The notes under the pieces were generated by a model that saw nothing but the letters and a program-made list of their open reading frames with translations, was not told the origin of the DNA and made no database searches. The translations under genes were made by a program, and so were the position numbers. Of a DNA stretch of 32,000 bases, positions 24,509 through 29,547 are shown in pieces. Every line of letters begins with the position of its first letter. Within the stretch, counting starts at the first letter, position 1. This DNA is from Candidatus Harpocratesius repetitus (GTDB lineage Archaea; Asgardarchaeota; Lokiarchaeia; Sigyniarchaeales; Promethearchaeaceae): the NCBI GenBank assembly GCA_021498095.1, contig JAIZWK010000001.1, positions 2,640,001 through 2,672,000 of the forward strand. Direction: 5' to 3'.

Positions 24509-26341
24509 ATGGCGGATTTAAAACGTATCTTACTTTCAAATGTGTTTTGGAAATTTAGATTCGGACTCTCACAAGATGATGATGGAGAGGATCTTGGTAT
24601 TACTGAAAAATGGTATGAAACAGGAATTCCTTATGATTCTCGACGTTTGAAAGTATATGTGCCATCTACTTGGTCCTATTATCAAAATCGCAAAAATTTT
24701 TACCATTTTGGTACCGGTTGGTATGAAACTTCCTTTTTTTTACCCCTAAAATGGGGTTCAGGAAACGGCAAAAAAATAACTTTAGTTTTTAATGGATCTA
24801 ATTACAAAACTACTGTATGGTTAAATGGACAAAAAGTTGGTTTCCATGAAGGTGGTTATACCAAATTTTGGTTTGAAATTAATAATTTTGTTAATTTTGG
24901 AAAAGAGAATTTATTAATTGTCCAAGTAGATAATCGTTATGTTCCAAATAGAATACCATGGGGAAAAAGCCCCCCATGGATGAATTACGGCGGCATTTAC
25001 CGACAAGTTTATTTGAAACAAACTTCCAAAATTTGTATTGATGATATCAAAATTACTAATAAAATAGAGTTTGATCGACCTGTAGGACAAGGATATCAAA
25101 AATGCCAAGTAAATCTTAATATTCGTTTTTCTATCAAAGATTATCGAGAATACTCTAAACCATTCAAAGGTAGTGTATTGGTTACTGTTAAAGACAATTT
25201 CAATCAAATCACCCATGAAGTTCCAATTCGAATGGGTCAAAAAGAAATTCAATTCATTAATACAACTATTCCTTTACAAACACCCACTTTATGGTCTCCA
25301 GAAAATCCTTATTTATATGATATTACATTTCAGTTAATTGAAGAAAAAAATCGAATGGAAATCGATAGAGAAAATATTCGCTGGGGTATCCGAGATTTTT
25401 ATGTTAATGAACATAATTTTTATTTGAATAATTCTAAAATTGTGCTCCGTGGAATAAATAGATTTGATGATCATCCAGATGTTGGTTCTTCACTTAACCC
25501 ACGTTTAATTTATAATGATCTTAATATTCTGAAAGATGCAAACATTAACTGTATTCGCACAACTTATTTTCCTCCCCATGAATCATTACTAGAATTAGCA
25601 GATGAGATGGGATTTTTAGTTTTAGAGCAAATTCCAGTTTGGGGATTTTCAAAAGATGATTATACTAAAGAGTATCTTACCAATGCACAGAAACAATTAT
25701 GGGAAATGATTCATCGAGATAAGAATCATTGTTCTATTATTACATGGTTAGTTTCAAGTGATTGTGAAACTCATACAGAAGAAGGAAGAAAATTCATGCA
25801 AGAATTATTATCATTATCTCGTGAATTAGATCCTTTTCGAACACATTCCTTAGTATCTAAAAATCCATTAGAAGATAAAACATTTGATTTAGTAGATTTT
25901 ATTTGCACACGAACTGATTCTGGATGGTATAGCCATTATAATACTTCACCTAATGAATCTGCTAAATTTATTGATCAAGTTTGGGAATCAATTAAGCAAC
26001 AACATCAAGAAGGAAAATTAAAACCATTAGTTCTATTAGAATTTGGTGCTGAAGCTATTGTTGGTAATAAATCATTTGCAAACGCACATTGGAGTGAAAA
26101 TTTCCAATATGATCTTTTGCGCGCTTACATTTCAGAAATAATTAGTAAAAAATACATTGCAGGAGCTTGCATTGGTCATTTTCAAGATTTTCGACTTAGT
26201 CCTTACAACGGTTTTCGAGATAAACCACAAGAATTGAATAATAAGGGGATTGTAGATGTGCATCGTCAACCGAAAATTAGTTTTTATATAGTTCAACGAT
26301 TATATCAAAAATGGGCAGATACTATAAAGAATAATCAATAA
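24509..26341 (+). CDS. GH2 beta-glucuronidase-like glycoside hydrolase
   Basis: GTGWYET, FHEGGYTKF, NYGGIYRQV, WSPENPYLY, LRGINRFDD, LLEFGAE and NNKGIVDVHRQPK. The acid/base motif is altered (WLVSSDC). Confidence 0.9.
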   Translation: MADLKRILLSNVFWKFRFGLSQDDDGEDLGITEKWYETGIPYDSRRLKVYVPSTWSYYQNRKNFYHFGTGWYETSFFLPLKWGSGNGKKITLVFNGSNYKTTVWLNGQKVGFHEGGYTKFWFEINNFVNFGKENLLIVQVDNRYVPNRIPWGKSPPWMNYGGIYRQVYLKQTSKICIDDIKITNKIEFDRPVGQGYQKCQVNLNIRFSIKDYREYSKPFKGSVLVTVKDNFNQITHEVPIRMGQKEIQFINTTIPLQTPTLWSPENPYLYDITFQLIEEKNRMEIDRENIRWGIRDFYVNEHNFYLNNSKIVLRGINRFDDHPDVGSSLNPRLIYNDLNILKDANINCIRTTYFPPHESLLELADEMGFLVLEQIPVWGFSKDDYTKEYLTNAQKQLWEMIHRDKNHCSIITWLVSSDCETHTEEGRKFMQELLSLSRELDPFRTHSLVSKNPLEDKTFDLVDFICTRTDSGWYSHYNTSPNESAKFIDQVWESIKQQHQEGKLKPLVLLEFGAEAIVGNKSFANAHWSENFQYDLLRAYISEIISKKYIAGACIGHFQDFRLSPYNGFRDKPQELNNKGIVDVHRQPKISFYIVQRLYQKWADTIKNNQ

Positions 26342-27748: not shown

Positions 27749-28471
27749 CTAATATTCATATCCTGGTGAATGGAAAAATCCTTCATCTGGTCTTTTCTTA
27801 TCATCTTCATCTAATAACTCATTACGTCGTGCAGCAGCAGGATCATTTCCAACATCAGCTTCAATATATGAAGCTTTCATTATCTTCTTGTAATATTTTC
27901 GTCCTTGATGTAGGTAATAAATATTTTTCAAGTCTCGAAGGGAAATATAACCCCAAAAAGAGAATGGAAGTAAGAAAAAGAGGAAACCAAGCCATTGAAA
28001 GTTAAAAAGTGAAAAAAGATAAGTTGTGAGAAAATAAATTGAAGTAATTAAACTTATAATAAAAAGTATCAATCGTCGTTTTGAATTTCGTTCATATGTA
28101 TTATTTTCTAATGAATTATAACATGAGCAACAAATAACAGGCATAGTTACTCCAAATTTCTCCTTATAGTAAAGACTCATTAAAATTGAAAAGATACGAT
28201 CGATTTTCGCGCCGCAAAGTTGGCACCTTATTCGTAGAGAATTGCGATCTTGTTCTATTTTATCAATTTCTGATTTAGGAAAATAACAATCATCATTATG
28301 ATAATGCTCACAGTGATTGCAATGAAGCATTTTCTCAAATTCATGCGGAAATCGTTTTTTAAGATTTGATTCAATTATTTTATTATAATCGGTTTGTTGG
28401 GTACAATATGGAATTCCATCATCATCAATCGTCCATTCAGGATAAATAATGGAATCATTAGCATCTTTCAT
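27749..28471 (-). CDS. Cys/His-rich putative zinc-binding protein with two C-terminal TM helices
   Basis: CNHCEHYHNDDC, CQLCG and CCSC, then two hydrophobic helices and an acidic tail. Confidence 0.78.
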   Translation of the reverse strand: MKDANDSIIYPEWTIDDDGIPYCTQQTDYNKIIESNLKKRFPHEFEKMLHCNHCEHYHNDDCYFPKSEIDKIEQDRNSLRIRCQLCGAKIDRIFSILMSLYYKEKFGVTMPVICCSCYNSLENNTYERNSKRRLILFIISLITSIYFLTTYLFSLFNFQWLGFLFFLLPFSFWGYISLRDLKNIYYLHQGRKYYKKIMKASYIEADVGNDPAAARRNELLDEDDKKRPDEGFFHSPGYEY

Positions 28472-28665
28472 AGATATATCGATTTCATTTTCTAAATCTT
28501 CCTTTCTTAAAATATTATCCTTGTAATGGACTATTTTTTTCCCCCCAACTTATAATATTTATAAAATTGCGAATTTTTCTAACTAAATTAAAGAATTCTT
28601 TTATAAATAAACTTCTCCTTATATTTTTAAAAAAGGATGAAAAATATTAAAAAAAAGATAAAATA

Positions 28666-28755
28666 CTGCACAGATAATTCAACCAGATTTTACAATCCAT
28701 CCGATGCATCCCATACTTTTTGATGCACCATCATCTTTTGGTTAAAGTAGTGCAT
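28666..28755 (-). promoter_or_regulatory. Eukaryote-like SECIS element in the 3' UTR (core 28698-28734)
   Basis: Minus strand reads AUGAU-GGUGCAUC-AAAAAGUAUGG-GAUGCAUC-GGAUG: a UGAU/GGAU quartet with tandem G.A/A.G pairs, an 8-bp helix and an A-rich apical loop. Lower helices are UUUAACCA/UGGUUGAA and UGCAC/GUGCA. A U8 tract follows at 28649-28656. Confidence 0.85.
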
Positions 28756-28765
28756 TGATGAGATT

Positions 28766-29080
28766 TTAGTAAGTCAAAGAGAGAAATTTATACATTCCCC
28801 TTTTCTCCATATCTATGGTGGCTTTTTCTACCAAAGTTTTCATTTCTTTATCCAAATAGATTGGAAATGGAGCATCTGAAAGAGGATATGGAATAAAATC
28901 CGCTTTCCCCCAATGAAGTTCCGTATTTGAATGAAAGGGATATTCTTGAATTTTCACTTTGACGTCTCTTTGAATACCTCATCAACCTTTAGAACGCGCA
29001 TAGTAAACCAACAATGTAGGATTATCATAGTTTTTTTTGCGACGTTCAAGAAATTCCTTTGCTTGATCAGATATCTTCAT
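28766..29080 (-). CDS. HesB/IscA-like selenoprotein with two adjacent in-frame UGA codons (predicted G-U-U-G), 104 aa
   Basis: GGAGG RBS, ATG at 29080, then MKISDQAKEFLERRKKNYDNPTLLVYYARSKG-TGA-TGA-GIQRDVKVKIQ...PIYLDKEMKTLVEKATID...TY-TAA. The UGAs are at 28984-28982 and 28981-28979. Both halves resemble the HesB/IscA fold, and a SECIS lies downstream. Confidence 0.85.
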
Positions 29081-29547
29081 ATTAATCCTCCATTTTAATT
29101 TTAAGATGCGATCGTATTTGAAGATTTAGGTCTAAAACGCTTGAATTATTGTAGTTTTAATCAGAATTTGAAATTCTCGTCATTAACGCTCATTATGATG
29201 AAAAATCTATGATAATTTGCAATACTTGCAACTTAATTTCTTCCTATAACGAGATGAGAAAACTGGTTCTCATTTTGAAAGATTTCAAAATAATATGAAT
29301 GAAGGTAAAATAAAAAAAAAAAGTTAATTTAATTGAACAAAATCTTGATAATGATAATGATAATTTTTTACTGATCAAATTTGATCAACCACTATCATTG
29401 GTGGTTAAATTAATAATAGATTGAAAGTTTATAATGTTTTGGAAAATATTTGAAGAGATTACGATTGAAACAAGCCAAATATTCACTGATTTGGCTATTT
29501 CAAAGAAATGGAATGAAAAAAAATATTAAAATTTCGGAAATATTATG

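Follow-up and report, generated by a model that had tools for sequence, protein, structure and literature searches.

The question raised by this locus is whether a short reading frame broken by two consecutive TGA codons is one gene, in which both codons are read as selenocysteine (Sec, U) with the help of one SECIS element, or something less unusual. The window (the whole 32,000-nt stretch of Candidatus Harpocratesius repetitus DNA that was analyzed) contains this frame on its (-) strand. We consider it very probable that the frame is a real monocistronic Lokiarchaeial selenoprotein gene, with Sec33-Sec34 and an IscA/HesB fold, that is decoded via one lokiSECIS. A sequence-only reading had proposed one gene with two adjacent Sec codons served by one SECIS, and this proposal was supported by the conserved TGA-TGA, by purifying selection on both sides of it, by homologues with Sec-Cys (U-C) and Cys-Cys (C-C) at the same positions, by a lokiSECIS, and by the Sec machinery of the genome.

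Gene structure

The full coding sequence (28766..29080; this and all following coordinates of the gene and its SECIS are window positions on the (-) strand) comprises 104 codons and a TAA stop (28766-28768). The ATG start, read from the sequence, lies at 29078-29080, and a putative Shine-Dalgarno-like motif, GGAGG, precedes it at 29087..29091 with a 6-nt spacer. The two in-frame UGA codons, both predicted to encode Sec, are codon 33 (28982..28984) and codon 34 (28979..28981). They stand in the context K-G-TGA-TGA-G-I, and the frame has no other interruption. Sec aside, the translation contains no Cys and ends in ...LSLTY, so that a C-terminal CxC is absent. In all of these respects, from the ATG and its ribosome-binding site to the missing Cys and CxC, the sequence-only reading was accurate.

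It was also right that the mechanical list of open reading frames gives only the last 63 codons, from a GTG (28766-28957). In the family alignment this GTG was not conserved as a start. The truncation that had been expected of standard gene callers was found in the databases, which hold C-terminal fragments only (for example, P0021), and a 55-residue "hypothetical protein" of Candidatus Lokiarchaeum ossiferum proved to be the tail of a U-C paralogue.

Conservation of the tandem TGA

Orthologues were sought by six-frame searches of 61 related genomes. Apart from the target genome, seven members of its Lokiarchaeial family had the gene with two in-frame TGA codons, making eight genomes in all. 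These U-U orthologues represented four genera and were 70% to 35% identical to the target. TGA-TGA was invariant (8/8), and the start was 32 codons before the first TGA in all eight genomes, a start position shared by the paralogues. The motif common to the orthologues was [K/H]-G-U-U-G-I, and the Gly codons on either side of the TGAs varied synonymously (GGT/GGA/GGG). Where computable, pairwise dN/dS was 0.07-0.39 over the 31 codons upstream of the UGAs and 0.05-0.20 downstream of them. The low upstream values indicate that the short N-terminal part is translated in frame with the remainder.

Profile searches of protein databases also recovered forms with G-W-W-G at the motif. On the contigs of three of these forms W was encoded by TGA, because the gene callers had applied a code with TGA = Trp to short contigs. 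A contig from an independent sample (depth 58) carried a copy approximately 93% identical to the target, with TGATGA intact and both neighboring GGT codons changed synonymously to GGC. Thus, an assembly error was excluded. The sequence-only reading had suggested comparing codon conservation across the UGAs, and had raised the possibilities that the upstream part is not conserved or that the TGA-TGA is an error in the reads; the part upstream was constrained, as was the part downstream, and the TGA-TGA recurred in every orthologue and in the independent contig. Judged from these alignments, conservation of the tandem TGA is far beyond chance.

Sec/Cys exchange and phylogeny

Three paralogues in the same genome (C1:1470523, 2400903, and 3231793) have a single in-frame TGA and the motif Y-R-G-U-C-G, and the genome also encodes a divergent Cys-only relative. 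Such U-C paralogues were found in 12 of the 13 other genomes of the family. True G-C-C-G homologues with an uninterrupted frame are present in the databases (P0003, P0031, P0039-42, and others). At the first of the two columns, the U-C paralogues therefore have U and the Cys-Cys homologues have C; the second column is Cys in both groups of relatives, and the pair as a whole is C-C, U-C, or U-U. Cys/Sec combinations at columns 33-34 were what the sequence-only reading had predicted.

In the maximum-likelihood tree, the 13 U-U forms constituted one clade (support 92/90; recovered in 94% of bootstrap trees) whose internal branches are long, and we conclude that the U-U state is old and has been kept. 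Cys forms were nested among U-C forms, the usual pattern of Sec/Cys exchange. A further, very divergent U-U paralogue, with the motif S-Q-U-U-G-L and its own SECIS, was found in a congeneric genome. Most U-U orthologues have a C-P-C-P motif near the pair, in place of which the target has A-P-F-P; thus, the active site may differ between species.

Several loci showed features of their own. One U-C paralogue from the same genus (L017, genome G001) has a C-terminal extension of approximately 20 residues that is overlapped by its best SECIS-like match, which may reflect a lost stop codon or a sequencing problem. Two others (L026 and L029, genomes G012 and G013) end in a TGA stop, and the AUGA of the SECIS starts 1 nt later. 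This arrangement is consistent with the idea that UGAs too near the SECIS escape recoding (PMC4989117). Elsewhere in the target genome, at G000:C1 about 479160-479750 (+), another open frame contains adjacent in-frame UGAs (…D-A-Q-C-U-U-N-A-V-E-E…) in unrelated sequence.

SECIS element in the 3′ UTR

The lokiSECIS has been defined by an AUGA, a 9-bp stem, an 11-nt loop that starts with A and ends with G, and a following GA (Mariotti et al., PMC4989117). The element downstream of the target gene matches this definition exactly. Its core (28700..28734) consists of the AUGA (28731-28734), a 9-bp helix (28722-28730 with 28702-28710), an 11-nt apical loop (28711-28721; AAAAAGUAUGG) that starts with AAAAA and ends with G, and the GA (28700-28701). 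In the minimum free energy (MFE) fold, the whole structure extends over 28678..28746, with a lower helix (28740-28746 with 28678-28684), the kink-turn core, the upper helix, and the loop. The core lies 31 nt past the stop codon and 250 nt past the first UGA. Just 3′ of the element, a run of eight T (28649..28656) is a likely archaeal transcription stop, as judged from its sequence.

Among 22 family members, the SECIS was located 1-35 nt past the stop, with the AUGA and the loop AAA invariant. Compensatory changes occurred at all seven inner pairs across these 22 3′ UTRs. The covariation score was 0.703, compared with 0.259 in shuffled alignments (none of 500 shuffles scored as high), and was well above that of slid controls.

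A covariance model (R1) built from the family SECIS elements matched the elements of two metagenomic U-U genes. It also matched an element outside the training set, namely the SECIS that follows a two-UGA VhuD homologue of the same genome (27.4 bits, E = 5.7e-4); this positive control succeeded only with filters off and on the locus itself. In the fast scan of the whole genome, R1 returned only two training elements at good E-values. In a strict regular-expression scan of the genome, a single internal mismatch caused the VhuD SECIS to be overlooked; a loose scan, with 167 mostly spurious matches in this 31% GC genome, was discarded. No Rfam family matched the window at gathering thresholds; the Loki type of SECIS lies outside the scope of the Rfam models. 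R1 found a single SECIS element downstream of the target gene. Thus, one SECIS must serve both UGAs, 250 nt upstream.

The three-way layout of the element recurred in the MFE folds of most family members and behind SelD and VhuD in the same genome. It includes a small extra hairpin on the 3′ side, between the GA and the 3′ strand of the lower helix, at 28685-28698 in the target, in the VhuD 3′ UTR (L044), and in the SelD 3′ UTR near C1:3802400. We found no such hairpin in the published lokiSECIS description. In the selD 3′ UTR (G000:C1 about 3802300-3802490, (-) strand), the SECIS-like element has ACGA replacing the expected AUGA. A loop motif, GUAAACUUUG, is common to the selD element, the VhuD element, and several elements of the family.

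Sec machinery and genetic code

The sequence-only reading had asked whether the genome encodes a Sec machinery, and its components were found. They comprised a tRNA-Sec (59.8 bits; anticodon tca according to aragorn), SepSecS (443 bits) and SelB/EFsec (247 bits), both above cut-off, and SelD, also above cut-off and with an in-frame UGA of its own. A PSTK-like gene scored 94.8 bits, below the curated cut-off. TGA terminated 291 of 1735 long open reading frames. Thus, TGA is not a general sense codon in this genome, and is a normal stop elsewhere.

Fold and family placement

The AlphaFold model built from the family alignment (pLDDT 93.2, pTM 0.83) is one compact domain across both halves of the protein, with a helix followed by a long β-hairpin that carries residues 33-34 at its tip. 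The nine best Foldseek matches in the PDB were all of the IscA/SufA/HesB type (1r94, 2d2a, 1s98, and 1x0g among them), with E = 3.9e-5 for 1r94_A and TM scores of 0.60-0.63. A search of PDB sequences with the family profile gave no match, so the link to this fold comes from structure comparison only. The target scored below threshold for PF01521 (Fe-S_biosyn; 21.3 bits against a gathering threshold of 26.3, E = 3e-4), which was matched by 8 of 24 family members. Some relatives have precomputed Pfam matches to PF28096. With the query used, no PF01521 member above cut-off was found in the target genome.

In a weak hhalign alignment to Escherichia coli IscA (E = 0.13), G-U-U-G fell on G-C35-S-G, so that codon 33 aligned with Cys35. 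Distant Asgard relatives with G-U-S-G or G-U-G-G and a C-terminal Cys bridge to the IscA pattern. The placement of the UGAs at the G-C-x-G position of IscA, another claim of the sequence-only reading, was thereby supported. The C-terminal CxC ligands are missing, and the protein is therefore not a canonical A-type Fe-S carrier.

With regard to family, the target scored 20.3 bits against NF041239, below the cut-off of 40, and this model was matched by all 24 aligned relatives (best E = 5.7e-8). TIGR01911, the family of HesB-like selenoproteins, had no match to the target at E ≤ 10 and matched only one of the 24 relatives (E = 0.12); the target motif is U-U-G-I, not UxGP. Thus, the earlier description as a HesB/IscA-like fold was borne out, and the description as a HesB-like selenoprotein was correct for the fold but not for the family, because the nearest family is NF041239 and not TIGR01911. 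By these profile scores, the target is a distant subfamily of NF041239 and not a formal member.

Other Asgard families of the same class were also seen (L062-L065). They are IscA-like, with one UGA in G-U-G-G, G-U-S-G, or T-U-S-G, a C-terminal Cys, and then an AUGA-type hairpin. Their sequences suggest HesB-like selenoproteins, which published Asgard lists lack as well.

Genomic neighborhood

Synteny gave no conserved functional partner for the U-U gene: MetRS, a Cys-rich membrane protein, and UPF0147 flanked it in three genomes only. With no conserved neighbor, the chemistry proposed for the pair rests on analogy. The Cys-rich protein, directly downstream of the U-U gene in those three genomes, has 240 residues in the window (27749-28471, (-) strand), with several CxxC-like pairs, predicted membrane segments, and no Pfam family. 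Further away in the window, a 610-residue open reading frame (24509-26341, (+) strand) is glycoside hydrolase-like, with motifs of the β-galactosidase/glucuronidase kind.

The U-C paralogues fell into two groups by neighborhood. One adjoined a thioredoxin in seven loci (L019, L026, L029, L030, L059, L068, and L069), plus a TPR protein. The other (L007, L016, L020-L022, L024, L025, and L028) adjoined a PP-loop ATPase (NAD_synthase/ATP_bind_3/QueC-like) in eight loci and a ferritin in three. These neighbors of the paralogues, combined with the location of the pair at the ligand site of IscA, point to a redox site or one that handles sulfur, selenium, or metal. By this analogy, and held loosely, the U-U pair may be a vicinal chalcogen site of one of these kinds.

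Discussion

According to the mechanism that we propose, the mRNA would carry one eukaryote-like lokiSECIS in its 3′ UTR. This element, with tRNA-Sec and the Sec-specific elongation factor, would recode two neighboring UGAs 250 nt upstream. The predicted product would have 104 residues and the IscA/HesB fold, with Sec-Sec at the tip of the β-hairpin that in IscA bears the first cluster-ligand Cys. It would belong to a wider "CC/Se motif" group whose members are Cys-Cys, Sec-Cys, or, in the subfamily of the target, Sec-Sec. The two selenols might form a redox-active vicinal diselenide/diselenol, or a site for the binding and transfer of soft metals or chalcogens (S/Se, Fe-S), and, as in IscA, this site may be shared between the subunits of a dimer. 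Possible roles would be thiol/selenol redox reactions or sulfur/selenium trafficking. Judged from the sequences compared, decoding of UGA-UGA as Sec-Sec is well supported, and termination at the tandem UGAs could be frequent.

How much room does this leave for other explanations? Standard gene calling, which reports only the 63-codon open reading frame, and the databases, which hold the C-terminal fragment (P0021), suit a pseudogene, two unrelated frames (a 32-codon peptide and the 63-codon GTG frame), or a TGA-TGA created by a sequencing or assembly error. However, eight genomes and a number of metagenomes retain the interrupted frame, dN/dS is low both before and after the UGAs, the GTG start lacks conservation, a single compact domain is modeled over both halves, uninterrupted Cys-Cys homologues exist, and an independent assembly at depth 58 has the same TGATGA. 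Conservation, dN/dS, the single-domain model, and the independent contig thus refute these readings, to which we assign next to no probability.

Other doubts accept the gene and concern what is inserted. Sec might be inserted at only one UGA, with a near-cognate tRNA (Cys, Trp, or Arg) decoding the other, or both might be read through without Sec, so that a U-C- or C-C-like protein would result. The sister paralogues do work with U-C and C-C, and our literature searches, of incomplete coverage, found no demonstrated back-to-back Sec insertion. This explanation is nevertheless unlikely: TGT or TGC would suffice for Cys, whereas both codons stay TGA in 13 of 13 U-U forms separated by long branches; the genome has both the SECIS and the Sec machinery; and in Lokiarchaeota a single SECIS is believed to act on as many as six UGAs (PMC4989117). 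We think it more improbable still that the tandem UGA is mainly a selenium-dependent gate, at which translation stops after 32 residues unless Sec-tRNA is plentiful, so that its point would be regulation and not Sec-Sec chemistry. Two consecutive recodings should multiply any inefficiency, as such a gate would need, but across the whole family the two columns serve as functional Cys/Sec positions (C-C, U-C, and U-U), the pair sits at the IscA ligand position, and the 70 codons downstream are under purifying selection. Moreover, gating is compatible with decoding as Sec-Sec and is no substitute for it.

Given Sec-Sec decoding, a stronger statement can be made, which we hold at about even odds: that this is the first conserved natural Sec-Sec dipeptide found in literature searches, that one 3′ UTR SECIS delivers Sec-tRNA to two consecutive A-site codons, and that the cell makes use of chemistry available only from a vicinal diselenol/diselenide. 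Full-text searches yielded no natural adjacent Sec-Sec pair, although their coverage was incomplete and absence is not proven. If the statement is true, the pair could provide a very low-potential eight-membered Se-Se ring or, in a dimer, a four-selenolate site for a metal, a cluster, or a selenium carrier. The invariant Sec-Sec offers a natural system in which to ask how one eukaryote-like SECIS recodes consecutive UGAs, a question relevant to the evolution of processive Sec insertion such as that of selenoprotein P. For selenium chemistry and protein engineering, a vicinal diselenide that is genetically encoded, as predicted here, in a small and well-folded domain would also be of interest. 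The target genome has four family members (one U-U and three U-C), of a kind that the published Asgard surveys do not list; archaeal selenoproteomes are therefore undercounted, and their genes truncated in annotations. One orthologue lies in a genome that also encodes a protein named Candidatus Lokiarchaeum ossiferum in the databases, so that the prediction is probably testable in a cultivated Asgard archaeon.

Comparison with known systems

Vicinal chalcogen pairs occur in mammalian thioredoxin reductase (G-C-U-G) and at the C-terminus of mercuric reductase (Cys-Cys). A diselenide is formed by the UxxU of SelL (PMC4989117). The target resembles these proteins in having a close S/Se pair flanked by Gly, suited to a strained ring or to chelation of soft metals. 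Their motifs are set either in a flavoenzyme, on its flexible C-terminal tail, or in a thioredoxin fold. They have no homology to the target, and the likeness is one of analogy only. To our knowledge, none of the three contains Sec-Sec.

The Lokiarchaeota selenoproteins VhuD, HdrA, VhuU, PrxL, and SelD (PMC4989117, PMC11227280) share with the target the design and position of the SECIS, and in them, too, several UGAs depend on one SECIS. Five Asgard selenoprotein families were reported in 2016 (PMC4989117) and seven in 2024 (PMC11227280), and no IscA/HesB or CC/Se type was among them. PrxL.1 carries a Sec pair spaced as UxxU (PMC4989117, PMC11227280). In the known Lokiarchaeota proteins with several Sec residues these are at least two residues apart, whereas those of the target are adjacent.

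The carriers IscA, SufA, and ErpA (PF01521) share the fold of the target, and the Cys35 ligand of E. coli IscA aligns, weakly, with its first Sec. In contrast to them, the target lacks the C-terminal C-x-C, that is, two of the three cluster ligands, and has a vicinal pair where the carriers have a single ligand. The HesB-like selenoproteins of Methanococcales and bacteria (TIGR01911; UxGP) belong to the same superfamily and have Sec at the first ligand position, but they have one Sec, another motif, and a SECIS of the euryarchaeal or bacterial type.

The closest known relatives belong to NF041239 (Moor_selen_rel), the CC/Se motif family, whose original prediction came from Moorella thermoacetica. 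This family has a single Sec in a 2026 review that covers 119 families of prokaryotic selenoproteins and shows no U-U motif. Like the target, members of NF041239 have approximately 100 residues, an N-terminal helix and a β-hairpin, and an adjacent Cys/Sec pair at the tip of the hairpin, and profile searches recover their Cys-Cys and Sec-Cys forms. Unlike them, the target has Sec at both positions and belongs to Asgard hosts with a eukaryote-like SECIS in the 3′ UTR, not a bacterial in-frame SECIS. Within the IscA/HesB superfamily, we place the target on the CC/Se-motif branch, as a new archaeal form with a predicted Sec-Sec pair.
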